Source: Massalongia carnosa
Lineage: Eukaryota
Length of the DNA: 20,000 nt
Assembly (NCBI GenBank): GCA_965645245.1
Contig: OZ287078.1
Location: forward strand, 2,097,889 to 2,117,888
Reading direction: 5' to 3'
The stretch's first letter is position 1. The number at the start of each line of letters is the position of its first letter. This document shows, one piece after another, positions 1-15,065 of the stretch. The translations under genes and the position numbers were made by a program. The notes beneath the pieces were generated by a model. It was not told the DNA's origin, ran no database searches, and was given only the letters and a program-made list of their open reading frames with translations.

Positions 1-964
1 AATGTCGTACAAGGAGGCTGTGAAGATCTCGTTTTCTCGCTTCTTCATCAAGGTTGAAAAGGGGGCGGCTCCGATCATGTGAATACTCAGATCTGGAGGC
101 TGAACAGGGGACAATACAGAGTGCATGGGCTTCAAGGGTTCAAGACTAGCATGAACAGCGGGATTCTTAGGTTCAAAGGAATCGAATGCTTCCCCGTTTG
201 ACATCCTGAACAGGCATGTCAACTCGGGCAAGCTCGAAGGGTTCGATAACCTCGAGAGGGACCTTGTCCTCACGAGGGGTTTGACGGCCGTCAGATTGGC
301 TATCAGATTCAGGAAGAGTATGGTTCAGAGAAGAAGCAGTCTTTCTTGATAAAGACTCTTCCGAAGGATCACTAGATTTCGAGGCAATATTATTCGAAGA
401 AGAAGCAGTTTCTTTCACTAGAAACTCTTCCGAGGGATCTGGAATTCCAGGAACAACAAGAGGGGAGCGCTTTCCTTGTAAGCACTCCGCCGCACAATAA
501 CGAGACGAAAAGGTCAAGGTGTTTCGGGACCAGCTGACGAAGGGATCATGAATCTGAAGCCATTTGACTCCCAAAACAACGGGGTAATGACCCAATTGAG
601 TAACAAGAAATGAACCAGGTTCGCTATGGGCATCGATACTGAGTTGAAGTTTGACAAGATGAGTGAGCATGCCAATGGCAATAGGGCGGCCCTCCACTAC
701 CTGAAGAACACGAGGGCAAGCTAAAGGGGTGAGGGACAGGGAGTTTCTTTGCGCGAAGGATGCATCAATAAACGCATAACCCGAGGCACCACAATCAATC
801 AGGGCATGGGTGCGGAAGGAGCGATTGCCCACAGAGAGTACTATAGATATGACAAGGTGTCTACCATCTAAGGAGTCTTCTGACAGAGAAAATGCTGAAA
901 TTGAAACCGGGGAACCTTCCAAGAGTCTTCGAGGGCGACTTATCCCGAAGACTCCGCATTTTCC
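1..964 (-). pseudogene. gypsy pol N-terminal part (aspartic protease + linker), frameshifted near 190-230
   Basis: ORF 173..1072 has HALIDCGASGYAFID and YPVVLGVKWLQIHDPFVSW (retropepsin). After its stop the protein continues in another frame as GEAFDSFEPK...HMIGAAPFSTLMKKRENEIFTASLYDI up to position 1. Confidence 0.85.
923..964 (-). promoter_or_regulatory. Putative -1 programmed ribosomal frameshift signal (gag-pol)
   Basis: Minus strand G GAA AAT (958-964), 3-nt spacer, then a 9-bp stem GAGTCTTCG/CGAAGACTC (946-954 with 923-931) enclosing the gag stop. The pol ORF is in the -1 frame relative to gag. Confidence 0.7.
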
Positions 965-2164
965 GGAGAAGCAAAAGAGGTCTCGTTGAGACGTGAATTC
1001 TTGGGCGTACTCGGGCCCTTTGTTATGGGACAATTTAACGCAAAATGTCCCGACTCCCCACAATACCGACACAGACCTTCCGTCATCCGGCGAGTGACCT
1101 CCGCTGAGAGCAACTTACCACGGCTAGTAGTCGAGAGATCCATGGGGTCGGGTGCGGAGGATGAGGACAAGGGGACGGAGGATGCGGCGCGGGGCAAGGC
1201 CACTCCTCCGGACTGCGGATTACGGGGCAAGGCTCCAATAGTGGCAGGCGAAGAGGAACGAGACGTGAAAAGCTTACGAAGCGAAGCATTGACGTTGCAT
1301 TTTCGGGTGTCGAGTCTCTGCAACAGGGTAATTAACCCGTCTAAATCGTTGGGTAACTCCTGGGTTACCATTAGCTGCTTTAGTTCGTCGCTGACACCAT
1401 TCAACAGAGCCGAGCGCTGAGCCTCAGAATCGAAGTTAGTGTCCGGGATCAGTCGCTGAAAGTCCGACAAGTACACGTGAAACTCCCGATTCTTCTGTCG
1501 AAGGGACCGAAGCTCTCGTTGTGCAGTGGCCTTCTTGTCGGGATCCCCAAAAGCTCTCTCCAACATTGTTAACAAGGCGGCCACATCATCCAGAAGAATT
1601 TCTTGCTCCGATCTGACGTATGGTTGTACTTGTGAAAGGGCGAGTCCCTCGAGTCGACTAATAGCGTAGATGAGGCCGGACTTGGGACCCATGAACCGAT
1701 CGGCATTGACAAAGAGTTTGAGATGCAGTTGAGTCGTCCATGATCGAAGCTCGTCCTTGTTTCCCGAGAATTTCGGAATGTCGGGAACTTTTCAGAACGG
1801 GGTTCTCTGTTGCTAGTATGATTCTGATATTCTTGACTCTGCTGACGAAAGACAGATATCATCCCACGGGCGGCTATGAGCTCGTCATTGGAGGCCTGCA
1901 GCTGGGCACGAAGGTTGTTGAGTTCCGTTTCGAGGAATTGTATTGTCGATTCTTCTCCTCAATAACCTCCACGGCTCCGGAAGCGAAACTGATGAGACGA
2001 TGCGTGTAGCGATACCACTCTCTCGGATAAGCCGAGGCCGACTGGGCCTGTCCTTCCTGAGAGGCTGCTATTGCTGTGAGTCCGAGGCCTCCTCCGAGTA
2101 TCGGGACTCGAAGGGGCTGAGAGGTAGATCCTGGAGTGTCGAGAGCTGGAGAAGCTGAGGACAT
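940..2164 (-). pseudogene. gypsy gag, with frameshifts in its N-terminal third
   Basis: ATG at 2164 (MSSASPALDT) lies 52 nt inside the LTR boundary. Pieces in different frames (1874..2164, 1569..1862, 940..1692) join to give PKFSGNKDELRSW, LRQKNREFHVYLSDF, DPMDLS and the CCHC knuckle. Confidence 0.8.
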
Positions 2165-2216
2165 GAATGCTAATAGGGAACAAGAACCACACTGGAGTAT
2201 GGGAGGGTGTTTGTAA

Positions 2217-2488
2217 TGTCACGGTAGGAGTCCAATGATCCTATCAATGTGGTGGAACAGTGTTACGCTATCGACTATACTACATGATAATCTGACGAAA
2301 CGAACACAAGGAGGAAAACAGTAACAGCTAGCAGAGATTTCCTTTAACTACTGAAAAGGGACACTAAACCCAACTCGGTAAGCTCGCAGTCTAACCACAA
2401 CGATCATCCGCCGGCGCTAAACCTTAAAGTCCATCTAGGGCAGCCGTCTGTTCAATGAACCTCTACGTCTCATGTTCACACCATGACA
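2217..2488 (-). repeat. 5' LTR (272 bp) of the gypsy element at 1-2488
   Basis: Termini TGTCACGG (2217) and CCATGACA (2488) form a 7/8 inverted repeat with TG...CA ends. It sits between the gag start and an unrelated pol fragment. The partner LTR is not in the window. Confidence 0.75.
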
Positions 2489-2953
2489 GAGGGGTGAGAT
2501 GCTGAATACTAGTGATACCAGAGATGCTGGCGCTGGTCAGCGAGGACTGCAATCGGTGAAGGATTCGAGTATTTTCAGCTCGAAGCACTTCCCTTCGCCT
2601 TGGCTCCTCTGAGGATAGAGAGATAAAGCATCGCCAGCTCCATTATCCTTGCCATGACGATAATCGATGCGGAAATTGTAACGAGAGAGTTCTTGCGCCC
2701 AGCGAACCTGGCGGGGGCTTAAACTCTTCGTATCAATAAATCACCGCAGGTTGTTGTGGTCTGTAAGCACGAGAACTTCATGCTTACAACCTTCGAGATA
2801 ATGCCTACAATTCTTAAAGGCTTCAACGAAGGCCAGTAGTTCCCCATCGTGAGTTTCGTAACGAGTTTCTGCAGGAATCATTTTTCGAGAAAAATACGCT
2901 ACTGGGTGCCATTGGCCGGTTTCGATATCCAGCTGGGTAAGAACGACACCTAT
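2489..2953 (-). pseudogene. Fragment of a second Ty3/gypsy pol (RNase H), interrupted on both sides by other elements
   Basis: Manual translation: [110 protein letters not shown], with an internal stop at 2741-2743. Confidence 0.9.
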
Positions 2954-3217
2954 TGAAGAATAGTAAAACTCACGTGTAGGTATAATAGCATGATTGTCAT
3001 TGAAGGTATGGATTATATGTGAGCTATCTACTTCCTTATATAGCAGTCACATTGGAGACCTTTCGGCGACCCTTTTCATAAGCAGTCAAGCGGTCCACTG
3101 AATCTCGGTCCCCGGAGGTCATCTGGGTCCCCGTGGTAGAGTCGCCGAAGATAAGCACTAGATAAATGCCCATGATGGTAGTTCTTACCATCTGACACTC
3201 CCATTCAGTCATCTACC
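2954..3217 (-). mobile_element. Probable 3' LTR (2954-3197) of a copia-type element plus a ~20-bp internal stub
   Basis: Minus-strand termini TGTCAGA...TCTTCA. It is preceded by purine-rich GATGACTGAATGGGAG (PPT-like), contains TATATAAG, and starts exactly where the RNase H frame stops. No partner LTR is present. Confidence 0.55.
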
Positions 3218-3414
3218 TGTAGAAATCGCCCGTTGTGCGGCGTAACACGAAACGCGTAAGGTGTGCTTGGCTGATTTCCCCCCGCTTCGGCGTCGGCACG
3301 CACCGCTGTACCGTAAAACGTGCACCATAACACGAGAATCCCCGTCGCTGGCAACGCGACCTCTAATCGCCTCACGAGGGAGCTGGGAAGCGGCTAGGGC
3401 ATAGGGAGAGGATC

Positions 3415-4724
3415 ATGAGCGCCCGTTTTGTCTATCTGCCGGAATGGCGGGTGCTGGTGTGCGAAGCGTGCGGCTTTGGCCTCCGTCCCGGTCACGGCGT
3501 TTGGGTTCGGCACCTGAGGCAAGCACCGCATTGCTTGAAGGGCCCCGAGCTCCGGGCCCAGGTCGAGCTGTTCGAGAGCTACGACCTCTGCGCGCCGGAG
3601 CCGGAGCTCGCGCAGCTGCCGGCCCACGCGATCCCCGGATTACGGCTCCTCGACGGTTTCCAGTGCTTGACCTGCGCGGCTGGTCTGACCCCAAGCCTCC
3701 AAGCTATCGAACGGCACGTGTCAAAAGCCCACCAGCTCAAGCCTGCATGGCATCAGAAGAACCCCCTCTGGCGGTCGTGCAAACTCCAGACTTTCTTTGC
3801 CGAGAATCGCTTAGTTCGGTATTTTGTGGTAGAGGATGAGGGAAGAGCAGAGGCGCCAGGGAGCTCCGGATACAGGGGCGCGGATAGCTTGGGTTCAGGG
3901 GACGAAGACTTCTTTAAGCTGCTCGACCAGGACGCCGCTATTGCAAAGGAGGATGCTAAGGCAGAGGCCAACATCGTTCATGGCTTCGATGACCACCGAT
4001 CCGCTGTGGTGCCGTGGCTGAGACGGACGGGCATCGAGGAGCACACGCGGAGCTTAAAGAAGGACGAGATGCACGACTCTTTTGCAGTACCGAAGGCTGC
4101 CGAGAGCGAGCCCGAGCTGTTCCTGATGCTAGAGGTGATGGACGAGATCTTTCTAGAGACGCACAGCTAGTGCTTCGATGGTCCCGACTGCATGCTGACC
4201 TGGCCACGGCAGCTGGCGTTGAGCCGCTTCCATCCTGCCGCTGTCCCAGGGCAGAAGACGCGCGCGTTCGACCCGAAGAAGGAGCCTAATACGCTCAAGA
4301 CCTACTTCGGCTACTGGAAGCAGTTCTTGACCTACAGCTACCGGGTGGCCTACCGGGGCGACCACTTCACCGCGGCCGACAGCGACCAGCGGACCCCCGA
4401 GAGCCATATCCAGCTCACGGGTGCTCAGGAGAATGCGTGGGAAGTGGCTTTCCAAAGTGCCGTCGAGCAAGACGGGCCTGCGCTGAGAAAGGCCATGTCG
4501 GTGATCTCAATGGCGCTGATCTGCCACGAATTTGGAGGCAATCGGTACAGATCCTCACTGCTCAGCTTCTGCGCCATGCTCAGTGTCAAGCCACACACCA
4601 AGACTTGGAAGGAGCCGGGCAATTACAATAGCTGCTTGTCTGGCGTAATCTGGATTGTGCAGCTAATCATCTTCCACGCCAGCGCCTGTCTGGAGAAGGC
4701 GGAGCTAGGTGATACACTCGAGCG
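3415..4724 (+). pseudogene. Telomere-linked helicase (TLH/RecQ-associated)-type gene, 5' part with two C2H2-like Zn fingers (DUF3505-like)
   Basis: Motifs VLVCEAC...VRHLRQAPH, IPGLRLLDGFQCLTC...ERHVSKAH, LQTFF...RYFVV and PWLRRTG. ORFs 3415..4170 and 4192..4755 share a frame separated by one TAG (4168-4170). The gene is interrupted by the copia element at 4725. Confidence 0.8.
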
Positions 4725-5198
4725 TATTGGAATTTGCCGAGAATTTCCAGATTAGGCAATCATATGCTATATACGAAAAGCTTCAGATTTCGGCACGAGT
4801 TCGGCAACTACGAGGAGGCAAAGGTATGCAGCAAAAATGCTACATTTCGGAGGCAATTCAGCTGTTCATGATCACTGAGTGTCTCTGTGTCTCCGGTCAG
4901 CAATAAGGTGTATTGTGCCCAGCTGAAAAGCTTCAAAGGAAGCAGGTTCATGCATTTGATATAGGCCGAGATGGAGGCCCTCAAGCAGTATAAAGAGACG
5001 ATGATTCCTCATGTAATTTAGTTATTCAGTCGTTCAGAAGTTAGTGCAGCAGATAGCTAAATTTGGAGTATCTTCACTGGAAATACGGAGTACCTGCATC
5101 ACTTTTTCCAAGCACTTCTCTTTGCCTATCCTTGATAGCCCTAGACCCTCTTCTCCTGCATCCCGCTGCCGTATGCCTGGTTGATTTTTTGTTCAACA
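4725..5198 (+). repeat. 5' LTR of the copia element (474 bp)
   Basis: TATTGG...TCAACA. Matches 9585-10103 apart from 12 substitutions (counted by eye) and one 45-bp indel. Confidence 0.97.
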
Positions 5199-5210
5199 GG
5201 TTATGAGCCC
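5199..5210 (+). promoter_or_regulatory. Primer-binding site, half-tRNA-iMet type (copia/Ty5-like)
   Basis: GGTTATGAGCCC directly after the 5' LTR, with no TGG (anti-CCA) start. Confidence 0.85.
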
Positions 5211-5344
5211 GTATAGCACTCTATTCAAATCCAGGAGTATTTTATCACTAGATCTTTTATCTTAGGGGATATAGCCTGTGTGCTTGTTTGAACTCCTAGC
5301 TATCCATTTCGGCACTCGAATAGGACGACTCCTTTACCACCAAA

Positions 5345-8300
5345 ATGTCTGCCTCAGAAGACAGCCAAGATACCGGAGGTGCCATGAGGGCATCCACCAC
5401 CCCCGAGGCTAGCAAGGACTCCTCATCAAAGGACAAGGGCCTAGCGGCTATGACAGCCATTGATGGGGGATATAAAAGGGGTGCCGGTGTAAAAGATGAA
5501 GTAAAACTGCCAAAACTTACTAGCGACAACTACAGGCTGTGGTCCCACCTTTTGAAGGTGCACTTAATTGCCAAAGGGCTCTGGAAAGTAGTCAGTGGAG
5601 AGATACTCGAACCACCAGGAAGCATGCCTTTAGATAGAGACTCGTGGATCTTTGATGATGCCACAGCAATTACCATCCTCATGGGAGCCATGGACGAAAG
5701 GCAGCAGAAGCATGTGCAACTGCAGCAATCTGCCGAAGGGGTATAGGATGCCCAAAAGGAAATTCACGGCAAAGACTCCAGGACACGCTTGGTCCCCATG
5801 CTCCGCCGATTTCATACGTATAAGGCCAAGGCAGAGGAAGGAGTAGATGAGACTGCAGCAGAGCTAGAAGATATGAGGGATATCATCGCAAACATAAACC
5901 CAGAGGTGAAGCCATCCGATATCATGATGGCCCTAGTCCTAATGGATTCGGTGGATCACGAGCGGTATAATGCGGTGAAATTGCAATTAAACGACTTGGA
6001 AAACCTCACGTTTCGGAAGGTGATTGAAAAATATAAAGAAATCGAGCAGATGGCGAGTGATAACGCGGGGAACCCCTATGAAATCGCTTATAAGGTCTCC
6101 GCCAAGCCCTATAAGTTTAAGGGGAAATGTTACCACTGCAAGAAACCTGGTCACGTGAAAACCAAGTGTTTTGAATGGCTTGCCAGTGACGAAGGCAAGG
6201 CTTACAATGAAGATACAGCCAGCACGGCCCAATCAAAGGGCAAGAAAGTCAAGGACGGAGGTAAGGGAGAGGAAAAGTTAAGTGATGGCAGACGTGGAAT
6301 GGGCCGAGGAGTTCACCTTGCACGTAAAGCATCCGGCACAAGGGACAGCGACAGTAAGGATAGCGACGACGAGTCAGTGTACGGTCGCATTGCCATTGAC
6401 CACGTAGACCAGAGCGACCATGAGGATTTCACCGACTACGTCAACAATGGGGCGAGCTATCGCACTTCCTAGAAGTGCTCCTCCCCTAAGAGTTTTGCTA
6501 GAGTGGCAAAACTCACTTCCAAAGTAATACCCCCGAATGAGTAGATGATTGACTCAGGGGCCATTCGCCATATGACGGCCAGTCGGAAGCTATTCACAAA
6601 CTTTACACTGCAGGTAAGTTGGGTGAGGATAGCTAATATGGTAAAGATTAAATCACCTGGTTAAGGTGATGTGGCTGTGGAGCTGGAGGATAAGAAGTTC
6701 AAACTTACAGAAGTGTTATACGTACCTGAGCTGGATGCGAATTTGTTGTCAATTTCGGCATTACAAGCTAGAGGAATGATTGTGAGGTTTGGATTGAGTT
6801 TCGTCGAAATTTTGAGGAGAGGTAGCTGCCTCGCCACCGGGTTTTTGGTGGGAAAAACGTACCTGCTCCGATCCGCAGGAAGCGGAGTGGCCCTGATAGC
6901 CACTGAGGATCCCGATGAAGAAATCCCTATTACTTCTGATCCAAATATCAGCGAAAGATCGTCCGGAAATCAGAATTTGCCAAGAATGCCAGAAAATGCA
7001 AAAAGACAATAAAAAAGCAATTAGTACTTGGTCCCAATTAGAAAGAGACCGATACCTACTATGGCATGGCCGCATGGGGCACGTGGGAGCATACAGACTC
7101 ACTGACCTCCATGAAGCCACTAATGGAGTGGGAGCCAAGTTACATGACCATGAGAAGGAATGCAAATGCATCACATGTACTCAGACGAAAATGACTTGAA
7201 TAATCAACCGAAACCCACCAGAACGGGCTACCCGCCGTCTGGAACGAGTCTGTTCAGACTTTTGGGGTCCATATCGGGTGCCCAATAACCAGGGGACCAA
7301 GTATTTTGTGTCCTTTACCGACGAAGCCACCGGCTACTCGGATGTTTACCTCGGAGCCAGGAGCGAGCTAGAAAAGCTCTTTCGGATGTTCAAAAATCGT
7401 GCCGAGATCGAGACAGGGGAGCGAATCAGGATCCTGCGATGTGATAACGCTTTGCAGTATGAAAAACTGGGTAGAACGATATTGCCGGAAGGAATAGTGG
7501 TGGGTTTACCACGGCCTAAACCCCTGAGCAGAATGGGGTTGCAGAAAGACTCAATAGAACGCTGATGCAGATGGTATCAGCGATGCAGATGTGGTCTGGG
7601 TTGCCTAGGTCATTTTGGGGGGACGCAGTACTGACTGCCAATTATCTGAAGAATCGCCTTCCGTTGAAGCGGTTTGATAAGAAGACCCCATATGAGATAT
7701 GGCACCAGAAGAAGCCAGAGGTAGGCCATATGAGGACCTATAGATGCCTCGTACACGTGCACGTTCCTAGCAAAACTCGAGCGAAGATGGATAAGGTATC
7801 CCATCAGGGAATTCTCGTTGGATTCCGGTCATCTATACAGTATAAGGTGCATAATCCTGATACGAAAACAGTGGGAGTACATACCTCAGTGAAGTTTTTC
7901 GAGGATTGGCCAAGAGGCCCTTTACTGAATACACCAGCGGAACAGGGTGAGTGGGAGTTAGATGTTGCAGATTCAGACTACGAACCTGATGAGGAACAAG
8001 GAGTTCCTACGTACAGACTTACAAACCCTGAGAATGCCTTAGAATTTCAGGGAACATCAAACCTAGAAAATGACGACGCAATATTTCTAGGTGATAATGT
8101 TCCCGGAGAAAGTATTGAGGGTACAGAGAATCCCTCACTGAATGAAGGCGATATTCCCGGAAATCGCGAAACTCCGGGAAATCAAGAAGAAGGAAACGAG
8201 ACCTCGGAAACTGAAATCCGAGCACCAGAATTCGAAGGTCTGCCGACTACTGGACGAAATTCGCCAGAGCCAGCACAGAATTCAAAAAGGGGGCAGAAAG

Positions 8301-9430
8301 CCACGCTATCACCGAAAAATCAACAGCTTGTTTTAGCAGCACCTTCCCGGTCAAGACGCACGAAAAAGCCGTATGACTCCAAGGCATTTGATAAGTCAAA
8401 AGCACCAATGGCTATCGTTTATATAGCTCGATTGCCTGAACCGGCTACCTATAAGGAAGCCATGACTGGACCAAATCGCCGTGAATGGAGGGGGGCAACA
8501 GAAGAAGAGCTGGAAGCGCTGCGGTGGAAACGCACGTTTATTATCGTGCCGAGGCCGAAAAACCGTGAGCTAATAACTTCGAAATGGGTATTCAAAATCA
8601 AATACACATCCGCCGCAGTTATTGAGCGGTTCAAGGCCAGACTTTGTGCTAGAGGTTTCACTCAGAAATATGGCATTGATTACGAAGAAATATTTGCACC
8701 CACCTTGAGGTTCGAATCTCTGAGAATGTTAATGGCAATTACTGCGTTACTGAACCTGGAAGCACATCAAATGGACGTTTCAAATGCCTATTTAGAAGGG
8801 GAGTTGGAAGAAGAAATCTACATGGAAATACCAGAGGGAATGGATGTTCCGAACGAAAAGAATAAGGCCCTTCTACTGCAAAAAGGCCTTTATGGTCTCA
8901 AGTAATCCGGCCGAATCTGGAGCAGAAAGTTCAGAAGGTATCTGAGATCCATTGGATTCGAACCAATCTCAGCCGGCAATTGTGTGTTCATAAACCTCCA
9001 AGCCGGCGTCATTATCTCAGTATACGTCGATGATCTTCTCATTTTTACCGCCAAAATATCCCTCATCAATGCAGTCAAGGCACAGCTAAAACAGGAGTCT
9101 AAGATGAAGGATTTGGGAGAGGTAGACCACATCTTGGGAATGCGAGTGCGGAGAAACCGAAAATCTAGAAATCTAACACTAGATCAGTCAGTATACATCA
9201 ACAACTTCATTTCGAAATATGGGATGGAAAATGCACAACCAGTTTCAACTCGATTGATGGATATGCAGCATTGACTGCCGCCACCCCCACGGAACCCAGG
9301 ACCGACCAGCTGGAGTATCAGAAAAAGCTATGATCCCACCAACGAGATAGCAGCTGATATTTTGACAAAGCCTTTGACAAAGGCGGCTTTTGAACGCGGA
9401 CGTGCTCTACTAGGTATGAAGGGTGCCTAG
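5345..9430 (+). pseudogene. copia gag-pol polyprotein with multiple stops, frameshifts and an RT/RNase H deletion
   Basis: Gag LTSDNYRLWS...LIAKGLWKVV and knuckle CYHCKKPGHVKTKC; protease *MIDSGAIRHMT (~6542-6577); integrase LWHGRMGH..CITC, SDFWGP, RCDNA, PEQNGVAERLNRTL; RT SKWVFKIK, RFKARLCARGFTQ, QMDVSNAYL, LYGLK*S, YVDDLLI; RNase H tail AADILTKPL. Stops at 5744, 6470, 6542, 7197 and 8903. Confidence 0.95.
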
Positions 9431-9574
9431 AGAGTTAGCGATAGTTTATCGCAACCACATCGGCCCACGAGGGCCAATGGCCTACCTGAGCATCGTGTTC
9501 CGATTGGCAAAACACGCAGGATTTCTTTTAATTCGTTTTCGGGCATGCGAGGGTATGAAGGCATTCAGATACTC

Positions 9575-9584
9575 GGAGTAGGAG
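9575..9584 (+). promoter_or_regulatory. Polypurine tract of the copia element
   Basis: GGAGTAGGAG immediately before the 3' LTR. Confidence 0.7.
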
Positions 9585-10103
9585 TATTGGAATTTGCCGA
9601 GATACCTGAATATTTGCGACCGAGGTTCTTTTGCCTCCTGCTTACTAATTTCCAGATTAGGCAATCATATGCTATATGCGAAAAGCTTCAGATTTCGGCA
9701 CGACTTCGGCAACTACGAGGAGGCAAATGTATACAGCAAAAATGCTACATTTCGGAGGCAATTCAGCTGTTCATGATCACTGAGTGTCTCGGTGTCTCCG
9801 GTCAGCAATAAGGTGTATTTTGCCCAGCTGAAAAGCTTCAAAGGAAGCAGGGTCATGCATTTGATATAGGCCGAGATGGAGGCCCTCAAGCAGTATAAAG
9901 AGACGATGATTCCTCATGTAATTTAGTTATTCAGTCGTTCAGAAGTTAGTGCAGCAGATACCTAAATTTGGAGTATCTTCACTGGAAATACGGAGTACCT
10001 GCATCACGTTTGCCAAGCACTTCTCTTTGCCTATCCTTGATAGCCCTAGACTCTCTTCTCCTGCATCCCGCTGCCATATGCCTGGTTGATTTTTTGTTCA
10101 ACA
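9585..10103 (+). repeat. 3' LTR of the copia element (519 bp)
   Basis: TATTGG...TCAACA. Carries 45 bp (9603-9647) that are absent from the 5' LTR. Confidence 0.97.
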
Positions 10104-10108
10104 GAGCT

Positions 10109-11540
10109 CATTGAGCAGTATTGCGGGCAGTTCTTGAAGCAGGACACCGAGACTCCTGTGGGCGAGATCCTCGGCTGGCGCTTGCTGCTGTTTACTGTCT
10201 CGAAGGAGGTTGTTGGGCCGCACCAAGCACAGTGGGATGTGGACGAGAAGGTCCTGACCTACCGAGACGTTGATTTGCATATGGATCACGTGCCGCGGCT
10301 CTTACTCTCCGAGTTCCAGCAAGCCCAGCACCTACTCTACGACGAGCTGATGTTCGGGACCCAGAACCTTCCGCGGATGCGTGCTTGGGCATTAAAGGAC
10401 AACTTAGACGCCGATGCCTTTGGCTGGTTCTTTGGCCAGCACTGGGTGAACTTTGAGCTGGTAAAGCCACTGGCGAGGTCTTTGCTAACCGTTATCCAAG
10501 ACTCGAAGCCGTTGCGGGACTCGTTCCTGGATGCCAACGCGGATGGCGCTAAGGTCTGGCGGGAGAAAGCGATTGAACGGTCTGAGGCCGTGGCTAACGA
10601 GTTCCTGAAAAGGCTCTTAGTCTTGATCCACATGGGCTCTGGCCAGCCTCTGCGCGAGAGTGAACTGTTCTCCGTCACCTGGCGTAACACCCAGCGGCGG
10701 CAAAGCGTCTACCTCAAGCACGGGCTAGTCATGCTGCACACCACATACCACAAAGGTCAGCAGCAGACGGACAAGTTTAAGGATAATATCCGGTTCTTGC
10801 CTGCACCTATAGGAGACCTCTTGCTGGACTACTTGGTAGTTGTAGTCCCGCTCCACCAGGTCTTCCTCCGCCGGTCTGCCCCGCATTCCCTTATCTCTCC
10901 GTACTTGTGGTGGCAAGACGGCAAGGTCTGGGCTGACAACCGGCTCACGCGGTGCATGGAGCAGGCATGTAGTCGGGCCAGCGTCCCCCGGCTACACATT
11001 GCCAACTGGCGGCAGATGACGGTCAATATCGTCGAAACTAAGTTTGCAGCTGACGTTGGGTGCTTTGAGGTTGACGACGGGGCTAACGACGAGGATGCCG
11101 AAGAGATCGAGGCGAACATTCGGATTATGACCAAGCAGCGGAACCATAGTAAGCGGACTGTCAACCGGGCATATGCAAACCAACACAATGCTAACTTTGG
11201 GAACGTGTGGGATGGCCTTATCCGCCGGAATCTGCGTGCTTCAACTCTGTGGAAGGACTTGTGGGGGCTTGACCAGCTGCTGGGACCTGCTGGGAAGAGG
11301 AAGCGGGATGGTGAAGAATTGGTGGTCCGCAAATGCTCAAGAAGATCGCCATGGGGGTCTACCGGCCACGGAAGAAGTGGTCAGCTGCGGCTCTGCTGAA
11401 CAGTGTAAGAAAGCTGTACCTAGAAAACACGCTGAAGTGGAAGTCAGCAGCGCAGGAGCGGGCTATGACTACTATCATGTCATGGACTGAGCAAGTGGTA
11501 GTTATCATGGCTACTGGCGAAGGGAAGAGCCTGCTGTTTA
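10109..11540 (+). pseudogene. TLH-type gene, 3' part: tyrosine-recombinase-like domain and start of a RecQ-type SF2 helicase, truncated after Walker A
   Basis: In frame with the 5' part once the copia element is removed (DTLER-IEQYCGQF). Motifs GSGQPLRESEL, TTYHK, IRFLP, NWRQ and QRNHS...RAYA. After a frameshift near 11315-11330 it reads KWKSAAQERAM...VVVIMATGEGKSLLF. Confidence 0.85.
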
Positions 11541-11766
11541 TAAGAGGGACAGTAGATACTAGTCCTTATGGGTTATAATGCTCAGTGTGACTGTGTGAGG
11601 GATAAAACGAGTTCAATTTCAATAGCCTAGTTCTACACCAAAATCTTCAGACGAAGTCTAAAAGCTTTACTCGGGCGGAGTTCTATATAACCCCTGAAAA
11701 GTCGGTTCCTCGGCACATTACCTAATCGATGCTAGTCTGATGTCAGGTGACCTCAGGACCCTGACA
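11541..11766 (-). repeat. 3' LTR (~226 bp) of the chromoviral gypsy element
   Basis: Starts TGTCAGGG right after the PPT (minus strand) and contains TTATATAG. The far end (CCCTCTTA, about 11541, +/-2 nt) coincides with the loss of helicase coding sequence. Confidence 0.7.
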
Positions 11767-13862
11767 CTACCCCTCCTCTGAGACGGCGGCTCCGGACGTC
11801 GATGGTTGACTGTTATTCATGAATAGGACATCCTTTGGGGCGTTGGGTTTTCCTTTATTGTCTGTATGAAATTTTCTGATTTCTTCTTTGGCGCGAATGA
11901 AATCAGTCTATGGCTGCCAAGGTGGGTTTGCGTTCCAGTCATCCCATGAGCCGATATAGGTTGCTTTATACTGAGTGCCGTATTTCTTAGTTTCACGGCA
12001 GTCGACGATTTCGAGGACTTCATATTCTTCATGAGGACTGGATTCGGCGTCTTCTTGAATCAGTATCGGGGGACCCGGTTCAATAAGTTGACCGGGGAAT
12101 GGGTTCGTAGGAGCCAGATGAAGTTTCTATGGATGAAATATGGGTGTGAGCCCCACTCTTTTCAAGTGTTCGGGAATTTCCAATTCATAGGCCTTGTTAT
12201 CTATGTTTCGGATGATTTTCCATGGCCCCGCGTTTTTGGAACTCAGGGAGCGACTCTGCTTGTCGACGGAGAAATCTTTGGTGTTGACATATACCATGTC
12301 TCCTATCTTGTAGTCTGGATGTGGGGCCCGCGACTCATTGGCATATCTCATCTGATCTGACTGTGCCCAGGTTAGGTGCTCGATAAGCCATTTGGTCATG
12401 GCTTCTTGTCGGGCGGTTATTTTGTCTGCCGACATCAGTTCCGCGCGTCCGGTGACATTTGAGTCAAAAGGCTGAGGCGGCTCCGAGCCACTACGAGGGT
12501 GATAACCGTGATCAGCGAAGAAGGGGGACATTCCGGTTGAAGCGTTCGTATGATTATTGACTGCAAATTCGGCATCTGGTAAGTAGTCCACCCAGTCGTC
12601 TTGAGCATGTCTGACGTATGCTCTCAGGTAGTTCTTCATAACCTTATTCGCATTTTCGGTTTGACCATCTGTTTCTGGATGATGCGCGGAGGACGGTTTC
12701 GATTTGACTCCTAATCGCTGACAAATTCGCTTCCACAGATGGGCTGTCAATTGCGTCCCGCGATCGTGGACGATGGAGTTTGGCAAGCCGTATGTTGAAA
12801 AGACCCGACGTTTGAGGACTTCTAGTACGTCCTTCGTGCCTATATCCACCATAGGTTCGTACAACCTACGTTTGGTCAATCTGTCCACGATAACCAAGAT
12901 ATTTTCGTACGTCCGGCCCCGTCTGTGACATTTGGGCAGTTTGACTACAAAGTCCAGAGATAAGTCTGTCCATTTTCTTTGAGGTATGGGTAGTGGGGCT
13001 AATAGTCCCTGTTTCTGATCGTTGTACGCCTTGGACCTTCGGCATGTAGAGCAGTTAGTAGCGTATCTTCGACAATCATCCTTCATGGACATCCAGAAAT
13101 AGTTCTCCAGCATTTTGGCATACATGCCTCGATACCCGGGGTGTCCTTGCATCGGGGGATTATGATGATCCGATAAAAGACGCAGCTTCAGCTTGTCGAA
13201 ATTCGGAATGAAGAGGCGTGTTTTGTAGTATAGTCTTTCGTGACGGACTTCCAAGTCACCCATCGCCAGTCTCAGCCCGTTGCTTAGAATTTTATCGGGC
13301 AATTTCTTCAGATTTTCCAACTTAGCCTTCATGACTTCCTGAATCATTGCGTCTTCTTGATATGCCTCCGCTAAAAGATTTTCTAATAATTCATCAGGCT
13401 TTTCTGCATCCGAATCATCATTCGAATTGATTGTGAACTCCTCTACCGTCAAGTCCTCTACTTCCTCATCCCTGATTTGATCGGATGAGTCAGTAGTAAT
13501 GTTGTCTTCAACCCGTTCTCGATTGGCCATGGATCTGGTTGTCACGTACAGCTTCAGGTCCTGTTTCACTTCATCGTCCAGCTGATTTTCTTTTAGCAGC
13601 ACCTGATATTGATATCTGGTGCGATCATCCTCCGCGTCCATCGGCAGATCTTGCTCTCTTCTGGTGAGGGCGTCCGGTTTGCCCCCTTGCTTGCCTGGTC
13701 TATACATAATGCGAAAATTATATTCCGCCAGCATCTCAGCCCAACGCACTTGACGGCGATTTAGTTGTTTCAAAGTCATGAAGGTCTCCAGATTCTTATG
13801 ATCTGAGTAGACCTTTGTTGATTGCTCCACTCCCGCTAGCTCCGGTCTCCAGATGACGAAAC
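11767..13862 (-). pseudogene. gypsy pol C-terminal part (RNase H end, integrase, chromodomain)
   Basis: VYSDHKNL, RQVRWAEML, HHNPPMQGHPG..CSTC, LSLDFVVKLP, IVDRLTK, VHDRGTQ, HPETDGQTE, AGPWKI. The same frame continues through TAGs at 12127 and 11908 into the chromodomain-like EEYEVLEIVDCRETKKYGTQYKATYIGSWDDWNANPPWQP. Confidence 0.93.
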
Positions 13863-14012
13863 TTAGGGTTAGGGTTAGGGTTAGGGTTAGGGTTAGGGTT
13901 AGGGTTAGGGTTAGGGTTAGGGTTAGGGTTAGGGTTAGGGTTAGGGTTAGGGTTAGGGTTAGGGTTAGGGTTAGGGTTAGGGTTAGGGTTAGGGTTAGGG
14001 TTAGGGTTAGGG
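13863..14012 (+). repeat. Telomeric repeat (TTAGGG)25
   Basis: 150 bp of perfect hexamers. The G-rich strand runs 5'->3' away from the fungal sequence, which is the polarity of a right chromosome end. Confidence 0.99.
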
Positions 14013-14013
14013 C

Positions 14014-14436
14014 GATCAGAGCCAGACCAGCGCCGTTCTCGGCGACGGCGGCGTTTATTCTTCGATCGACGATCTCGCCAAATGGGACGCCGCGCTCTAC
14101 GACAATCGGCTGCTGCGGGCCGAGTCGCTGCGCCGGGCGTTCACGCCGGCGACCAAAACCGACGATCCGGCGGTTCAATACGGGTTCGGCTGGCGCATGA
14201 CCGGCGAGACAGTCTGGCACTCCGGCGAGACGATGGGATTTCGCAACGTCATCGTGCGCTATCCGAAACGCCATTTGACCGTCATCGTTCTGACGAACCG
14301 CGACGAGCCGGAGCCCTATCCCGTGGCGCTGGCGATTGCGAGGATTTTCGTGCCGGACGCGGACCCGGCTCACGCGGCGACCTCGGTGACCGGCCCCGAC
14401 TCCGGCGCGCGGCCGCTGTCCGACCAACGTCGTTAG
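14014..14436 (+). CDS. Bacterial serine hydrolase (class C beta-lactamase-related family), 3' part only
   Basis: Open from the junction: DQSQTSAVLGDGGVYSSIDDLAKWDAAL...YGFGW...WHSGETMGFRNVIVRYP..LTVIVLTN. The N-terminal SxxK half is missing. Confidence 0.9.
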   Translation, partial: DQSQTSAVLGDGGVYSSIDDLAKWDAALYDNRLLRAESLRRAFTPATKTDDPAVQYGFGWRMTGETVWHSGETMGFRNVIVRYPKRHLTVIVLTNRDEPEPYPVALAIARIFVPDADPAHAATSVTGPDSGARPLSDQRR

Positions 14437-14465
14437 TTCTTTATCGCGTTTCGCGGCCGGCCGAG

Positions 14466-15065
14466 TCAGTCGCCCACCCGGATGACCAACACGTCGACGT
14501 CGGCCTTGCGCAGGATGGTGCGCAACCGATTGAGTTCGTCGAGCTTGGAGATCGGTCCGATGCGGATGCGGTGCCAGGTGTCGTTGTCCACGGATACTTT
14601 TTGTACTTTGGACTCCACGCCTTGCAATGCCAGCTGCGCGCGAATGCGATCGGCATCGGCAAAATTCTTATAGGAACCGGCTTGCAAGACATAGGTGCCG
14701 CGGCGCGTTTCCGGGACGGCGCGCACGTCGGGCTTGACGTCTTTTTCCCTTTCCGGGACCACCACCTCGAATTTGGGCAGACGGTCGTAGAAGTCGTAGG
14801 ATTGAGCCGGTTCTTCGGCTGCATCCGATTCGCCCGCTTCGGTGTCCGGCGATTCGGTATTGCGCAGTTTTCTCTTACCGGCCTTCGCGGTCGCGACAGC
14901 GGGCGTGTCCGAGCGATGGTCCTTGAGGTACACGATCCCTGCGATACTCAAGCCGACGGCCAAGCCGCACACGGCACCCAGCCATCCCGAAATCCGGCCC
15001 GGCGGCTTTCGTTTGGGCTTGTAGTCCCGCGCCATGCGTTTCGCCGCCACGTCTTTTCCCGCCAT
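14466..15065 (-). CDS. SPOR-domain membrane-anchored cell-division protein (FtsN-like); start codon uncertain
   Basis: MARDYK, one TM segment, YDFYDRLP, and C-terminal YVLQAGSYKNFADAD...WHRIRIGP. It lies directly downstream of argS. Confidence 0.9.
   Translation of the reverse strand: MAGKDVAAKRMARDYKPKRKPPGRISGWLGAVCGLAVGLSIAGIVYLKDHRSDTPAVATAKAGKRKLRNTESPDTEAGESDAAEEPAQSYDFYDRLPKFEVVVPEREKDVKPDVRAVPETRRGTYVLQAGSYKNFADADRIRAQLALQGVESKVQKVSVDNDTWHRIRIGPISKLDELNRLRTILRKADVDVLVIRVGD

Follow-up and report, generated by a model that had tools for sequence, protein, structure and literature searches.

We studied a stretch of 20,000 nucleotides from Massalongia carnosa (contig OZ287078.1, positions 2,097,889 to 2,117,888 of the forward strand; in the following referred to as the window) that carries a decayed copy of a telomere-linked helicase (TLH) gene. 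For more than 20 years, TLH genes have been recorded at the ends of fungal chromosomes, and they are treated as helicases with an additional, unexplained 'TLH domain'. Our main finding concerns a domain upstream of the helicase, which within this family is predicted to have a tyrosine-recombinase fold with the respective catalytic pentad. The full reading, i.e., a decayed TLH copy from a family whose domain would be a DNA breaking-rejoining enzyme that aids recombination of chromosome ends, is assigned a probability of roughly 0.7. It is carried by the predicted fold, the invariant pentad, the alignment of its active site with that of XerD, the domain order and the linkage to a telomere.

To locate the catalytic residues, we inspected the translation of 10086-11399 (+). 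The first-pass annotation of the window, made from the letters alone, had pointed to a tyrosine-recombinase-like domain based on the strings GSGQPLRESELFSVTW, TTYHK, IRFLP, ACSRASVPRLHIANWRQ and IMTKQRNHSKRTVNRAYA. All of them are found in the translation, and the positions given for R (10653), K (10752), R (11010), H (11145) and Y (11172) are exact. The motifs indeed lie in the annotated range 10626..11180, but the limits of the domain do not agree with it, since the domain is larger. In the following, the domain and its five residues are listed along with their conservation among 81 relatives and the XerD residues they are aligned with (profile-profile alignment, see below).

roughly 10221-11285 (+): catalytic domain with predicted tyrosine-recombinase fold
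10653-10655 (+): Arg-I, R190, within G-x-P-x-R-x-x-E-L; conserved in 81/81, aligned with XerD R148
10752-10754 (+): catalytic Lys, K223, within the Y-H-K motif; conserved in 81/81, aligned with XerD K172
11010-11012 (+): Arg-II, R309, within W-R-Q; conserved in 81/81, aligned with XerD R247
11145-11147 (+): His-II, H354; conserved in 79/81 (R in the remaining two), aligned with XerD H270
11172-11174 (+): candidate nucleophilic Tyr, Y363; conserved in 81/81, aligned with XerD Y279

The 81 relatives are mostly full-length. Over the region ahead of the catalytic domain, their identity to the top row of the respective alignment (A5) is 18-100%. Conservation of the five residues had been set as a check beforehand, and the counts speak for the proposed active site. 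A second set of 58 relatives aligned over the query provides a similar picture (R190 55/58, K223 55/58, R309 56/58, H354 55/58, Y363 56/58). Within the recombinase-like region, 35 of the 251 columns are conserved in at least 90% of the 81 relatives, and all five catalytic residues are among them. The residues had been picked blind, i.e., from a single sequence; the chance that five blind picks all fall into the 35/251 conserved columns is about 4e-5 (hypergeometric). The spacing between His-II and Tyr (9 residues) equals that of XerD, and the entire R-K-R-H-Y pentad is also retained in TLH-B, a diverged paralogue (44% identity in this comparison) discussed below.

Next, we evaluated the fold. 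An AlphaFold2 model of the recombinase-like region, based on the window's own translation and a 150-sequence alignment, has a mean per-residue confidence (pLDDT) of 87.5 and a predicted TM-score (pTM) of 0.86, with low confidence only in the out-of-frame tail and within an acidic loop. In the model, Arg-I is placed at a helix start and Arg-II within a helix, the Lys is found in a loop between strands 214-220 and 233-237, and His-II in a loop ahead of the helix that terminates at the Tyr. This predicted secondary-structure setting of the pentad fits recombinases. When comparing the model with 48,161 chains using VIA-align, ranks 1-28 are all taken by the superfamily of recombinases, type IB topoisomerases and Ndc10. 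With Foldseek, each of the 11 best rows is a Xer or Cre recombinase; XerH, XerA and Cre lead the list, and next come a Staphylococcus integrase and more Cre and XerD entries.

Remote homology was assessed with hhalign, i.e., we aligned a profile of 58 TLH sequences with a profile of 15 recombinases (13 from the E. coli K-12 chromosome, collected with PF00589, plus lambda Int and Cre). This results in a score of 32.7 (E 5.7e-4) over 130 columns. The controls score lower, with 15.2 for the reversed alignment and at most 16.1 (median 12.6) among 40 column shuffles. All five pentad residues are put on catalytic positions of XerD, which agrees with the earlier proposal of an R-K-R-H-Y series in the order of the tyrosine-recombinase set. 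The XerD residue numbers were checked against the motif positions using the 34-residue offset of the trimmed ORF (open reading frame). A Cre/Int alignment of two sequences was also tried, found to be poor and dropped. The nearest named clusters of a protein language model are Phage_integrase, NDC10_II, protelomerase and DUF3435, with scores of 0.83-0.86 that lie under the 0.9 reliability mark and are thus leads only. A match to the lambda-integrase fold was the second check set beforehand; both the top ranks of the structure search and the XerD profile alignment are favourable. Taken from the model, the TLH catalytic domain is shown to adopt a predicted tyrosine-recombinase fold.

Several observations weigh against this reading. 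On the level of sequence searches, Pfam reports no recombinase family on the window fragment or in 28 family members even at E<=1, i.e., PF00589 or a related curated model is matched by 0/28. A phmmer search and a search with a hidden Markov model (HMM) profile against the PDB sequences returned noise only and no solved recombinase. When aligning the TLH alignment to Cre alone or to lambda Int alone, hhalign found no meaningful alignment, and for the positive run it reports a probability of just 29.6%. Foldseek against the PDB shows no E-value down to 1e-3 (best 4.1e-3) and TM-scores of 0.2-0.3; weak values of this kind are expected because the model is large and multi-part. Within the domain, the first His of the HxxR motif is absent, as the first-pass annotation had already remarked: position 306 is A, S or Q family-wide and not conserved, and A306 is aligned with XerD H244. 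Between Arg-II and His-II lies a loop of about 22 residues that is acidic and modelled with low confidence. With respect to mobility, neither a recombination site nor a target duplication, a circle or an empty site turned up in the loci compared. No convincing inverted-repeat core was found, only trivial palindromes in AT-rich low-complexity spacers. Finally, the window's TLH copy is a non-functional pseudogene. Given that it is dead, the finding concerns the TLH family and not an active gene at this locus.

The absence of the first histidine makes the active site resemble that of type IB topoisomerases, and a nick-and-reseal swivel is therefore the main rival. Here, one strand would be nicked and resealed to relieve RecQ's torsional stress at chromosome ends, with no synapsis or strand exchange. 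We consider this unlikely. Type IB topoisomerases score below recombinases, the TLH box motifs align with XerD, and the N-terminal region does not look topoisomerase-like.

As in Ndc10 or in host genes derived from Cryptons, the same fold could also have been exapted as a non-catalytic DNA-binding module, which here would tether the helicase to subtelomeric DNA. Ndc10, to our knowledge, comes without the recombinase catalytic residues. In TLH proteins, the nucleophilic Tyr, both Arg and the Lys are invariant in 81/81 relatives down to about 25% identity. A tether is improbable because such invariance of the nucleophile is unexpected once catalysis is lost.

A telomere resolvase, i.e., a protelomerase-like enzyme that makes or opens hairpin ends, would go along with the position of the gene at a chromosome end and with the protelomerase cluster among the language-model neighbours (0.83). 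TelK and TelA score only 4.1, and we regard this role as very improbable. A merely coincidental motif resemblance of an unrelated fold and function, to which the negative Pfam, phmmer and HMM-versus-PDB searches would point, is contradicted by the concurring fold search, residue invariance and controlled profile-profile alignment, and its probability is close to nil.

We next considered the protein family in which the predicted recombinase domain is embedded. With a cut-off of E<=1e-3, a search of 1.84 billion representative proteins yields 1506 relatives, of which 103 remain at E<=1e-30. Based on source names, close relatives belong to Leotiomycetes, Dothideomycetes and Sordariomycetes, and one carries the source annotation 'telomere-associated recQ-like helicase'. 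Many TLH fragments are found on short contigs. In intact members, a single ORF of about 1430-1460 codons without introns encodes one protein with about 1440 residues. We scanned 15 full-length relatives (1238-1856 residues) with Pfam, which shows an OrsD zinc finger, about 760 residues without Pfam match and subsequently DEAD and Helicase_C. The fusion of zinc finger, tyrosine recombinase and superfamily 2 (SF2) helicase suggested at the outset is borne out, as this order is kept in 15/15 full-length relatives; the OrsD domain opens 14/15 of them and is missing in one, and the DEAD match is likewise missing in one. The domain order in intact members is OrsD zinc finger, helical region with weak resemblance to a core-binding domain, recombinase-fold domain, RecQ helicase and cysteine-rich tail.

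The region upstream of the catalytic domain was modelled from an intact relative (residues 110-470; pLDDT 91.4). It is mostly helical and weakly resembles a recombinase core-binding domain, which it may possibly be. For the helicase, we used an intact relative whose identity is 92% over the fragment with the recombinase domain and 79% over the 5' fragment. Its full helicase matches RECQ5 best (E 4e-26), followed by BLM, RECQ1, WRN and E. coli RecQ down to 1e-15. The roughly 200 C-terminal residues after the helicase (alignment A5), which are missing from the window, contain many near-invariant cysteines and one histidine; this cysteine-rich tail suggests at least one zinc-binding module.

The first 14 kb of the window are fungal repeat-rich DNA that closes in a telomere repeat. 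The window's TLH gene was compared with the relative P0152 (1439 residues). The respective features are as follows.

173-3046 (-): remnants of gypsy gag/protease and RNase H
3415-4728 (+): TLH gene, 5' fragment, P0152 residues 1-437, 79% identity (tblastn and ORF list)
3424-3735 (+): OrsD-type (C2H2-like) zinc finger (Pfam PF12013, E 1.4e-12, residues 4-107 of ORF 3415-4170)
4108-4728 (+), resuming at 10098-10211 past the copia element: helical region, weakly core-binding-like, TLH residues ~232-437
4168-4170 (+): in-frame stop in the TLH frame (ORF 3367-4170, then same-frame ORF 4171-4755; relatives read through)
4729-10097 (+), boundaries approximate: copia-type long terminal repeat (LTR) retrotransposon inside the TLH gene (Pfam copia gag, RVT_2 and others)
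10098-11321 (+): TLH gene, middle fragment, P0152 residues 433-840, 92% identity (tblastn)
11318-11542 (+): start of the RecQ-type helicase, P0152 residues 840-914, 89% identity, in another frame (tblastn)
11543-13862 (-): fragment of a gypsy-type LTR retrotransposon (Pfam Integrase_H2C2, rve, RT_RNaseH and SH3_Tf2-1 on ORF 12127-14667 (-))
13863-14012 (+): telomere repeat (TTAGGG)25, G-strand running 5' to 3' toward the end (regex scan and sequence)

The TLH gene is the last gene before the chromosome end and points at it, with (TTAGGG)25 following about 2.3 kb past the remnant. The gene had been described as telomere-linked from the start, and this linkage is real given the repeat at 13863-14012. 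The TLH gene is truncated by the gypsy fragment, which in turn is cut within its pol region by the telomere repeats. The latter suggests a terminal deletion that was healed through the addition of a new telomere.

The window copy cannot work because of the copia insertion, the in-frame stop, a frameshift, the truncation at residue 914 and the loss of 3/35 highly conserved residues. The frameshift (near 11318-11321) separates the middle fragment from the start of the helicase. A Walker A motif (ATGEGKS) is present at 11510-11530, TLH homology stops at 11542, i.e., at residue 914, and the helicase beyond motif I is missing, such that only its first 75 residues are kept. The DEAD match on this part is weak (Pfam E 0.0028, below the cut-off). 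The three substituted residues of the recombinase-like region are encoded at 10581, 10701 and 10854. One of the window's substitutions is R206Q, at a position where 57/58 relatives have the arginine.

We also compared the divergence of the two larger fragments from the same relative. While 222 mismatches in 1311 nt (17%) are observed for 3415-4728, there are 62 in 1224 nt (5%) for 10098-11321. Repeat-induced point mutation (RIP) was considered as a reason why the 5' fragment is less similar and rejected, given that neither C-to-T nor G-to-A changes are in one-directional excess. Since transitions are balanced, a recombinant mosaic describes the appearance of the window copy better than a RIP product.

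To put the locus into context, we investigated 17 metagenome loci that encode TLH relatives (identified with a single-protein query). In one of them (L001), which is 92% identical in the query region, the sequence terminates in telomere repeats about 2 kb past the stop codon, in the same orientation as for the window copy. The sequence between its stop codon and the telomere (3993-6034) is AT-rich with degenerate tandem repeats of 12-32 bp; it contains a (GTGA)13 run adjoining the telomere and one interstitial TTAGGG-like unit.

Two further loci, L002 (2-9107) and L005 (2897-11626), each carry two intact TLH genes head to tail. The upstream gene, TLH-B, is about 41% identical to the downstream one, TLH-A, and separated from it by a gap of 150-450 bp. 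In L002, both frames are open and the pentad is kept in both. Two TLH copies are also present in L014 and L009, and no remnant of the upstream paralogue TLH-B was found in the window. These tandem diverged paralogues recall the paired recombinases XerC/XerD. When comparing the loci with blastn, the sequence in common is limited to the genes and the stretch immediately ahead of them, and no shared TLH element boundary was found across the loci, the contigs of which are short.

Given the predicted fold and active site, the following mechanism can be proposed. The zinc finger and the helical region would select a DNA site, and Y363 would attack the DNA to form a 3'-phosphotyrosyl intermediate as in Xer and Cre. 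The 3'-5' helicase would then unwind or branch-migrate the exchanged strands. As an outcome, terminal blocks would be exchanged or copied between chromosome ends. If this holds, TLH genes would for that reason be multicopy, subtelomeric and mosaic. End exchange fits the multicopy state, the terminal position, the many decayed copies and the mosaic divergence of the window copy. The main reading is also supported by traits of a selfish element, i.e., 1506 representatives at E<=1e-3, single uninterrupted ORFs, many fragments on short contigs and mosaic divergence. A mobility of TLH units or their role in chromosome-end exchange is something we infer.

TLH units could even form an unrecognised class of eukaryotic tyrosine-recombinase elements at chromosome termini that copy or exchange the terminal block between ends. 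We put this forward as a tentative and rather doubtful extension. For such a terminal element, one protein would join a zinc finger for binding the site with a recombinase and a RecQ helicase, and the tandem diverged paralogues may act as an XerC/XerD-like pair. If true, this would explain the spread of TLH genes to many chromosome ends as well as their induction upon telomerase failure.

Next, we compared TLH proteins with known systems. With the Xer and lambda-integrase recombinases (PF00589), they share the order of Arg-I, Lys, Arg-II, His-II and Tyr as well as, possibly, a helical core-binding domain upstream. In contrast to these, TLH proteins show no PF00589 match, have A, S or Q in place of the HxxR His, an acidic loop before His-II and extra sequence N-terminal to Arg-I. 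Furthermore, the domain is combined with a zinc finger and a RecQ helicase in one eukaryotic fusion protein (about 1440 residues).

Cryptons and Starship captains are likewise fungal, recombinase-encoding, multicopy and without reverse transcriptase. The respective language-model neighbours of TLH (NDC10_II 0.86, DUF3435 0.83) are leads only, and no Pfam match to NDC10_II or DUF3435 was found in the 28 TLH members at E<=1. We know of no RecQ helicase in Cryptons or captains and of no tie of these to chromosome ends. Combinations of a helicase with a type IA topoisomerase are known from RecQ with Top3 and from reverse gyrase, with both activities in a single chain only for reverse gyrase. TLH proteins would likewise couple a RecQ-type/SF2 helicase to a breaking-rejoining enzyme, which is a functional analogy and no homology.

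The window gene itself is a decayed member of the TLH family, which includes Magnaporthe TLH1, S. pombe tlh1/tlh2, Ustilago UTASa and genes of Metarhizium, Fusarium and a choanoflagellate. It shares with them the subtelomeric position beside telomere repeats. The 'TLH domain' reportedly goes back to Rehmeyer et al. 2009.

Our literature search, which hardly reaches subscription journals such that a prior report is possible, found no work that links TLH genes to tyrosine recombinases or Cryptons. In the accessible part of a 2024 preprint (bioRxiv 10.1101/2024.02.27.582403), TLH proteins are described to consist of C2H2 fingers, RecQ motifs and, immediately ahead of the helicase, a conserved 'TLH domain' of about 250 residues. 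The same part calls the TLH function undetermined and uses the word 'recombinase' 0 times. A 2025 FoTeR paper mentions TLH frequently and a recombinase never. Both the N-terminal C2H2-type fingers and the RecQ helicase described in the accessible preprint text are found here (PF12013; Walker A together with the intact relative). Position and size agree with those given there, and we tentatively equate the recombinase-fold domain with the 'TLH domain' of the literature.

What is new is that a domain which has long been known without an explanation is assigned a known fold and chemistry, as predicted from sequence and structure models, and that it is part of a type of fusion that has not been described among eukaryotic recombinases. 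If true, the recombinase-helicase fusion joins a short list of eukaryotic tyrosine-recombinase systems. With its predicted intact active site, it would provide these chromosome-end genes with a testable mechanism of DNA cutting and rejoining, and it bears on their terminal location, their multicopy mosaic state and their role upon telomerase loss. It also means that a large family (1506 representatives at E<=1e-3) escapes Pfam annotation for its most distinctive domain.

Finally, we report on the remaining sequence of the window. The extent of the copia element is also bounded by TLH homology, which stops at 4728 and restarts at 10098 (tblastn). Its LTR cores (4742-5041 and 9647-9946) are 98% identical, and the insertion into the TLH gene is therefore considered to be fairly recent. 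Relative to the 3' LTR, the 5' LTR shows a short deletion near its start.

From position 14013 on, i.e., starting at the base after the telomere repeat, the window consists of bacterial DNA with a guanine-cytosine content of 57-67%. This junction of a fungal chromosome end and bacterial sequence looks like a joining of unrelated contigs or a chimeric assembly and not like biology. The genes in the bacterial part comprise a beta-lactamase-family fragment, a SPOR protein, arginyl-tRNA synthetase, PriA and an ECF sigma factor.

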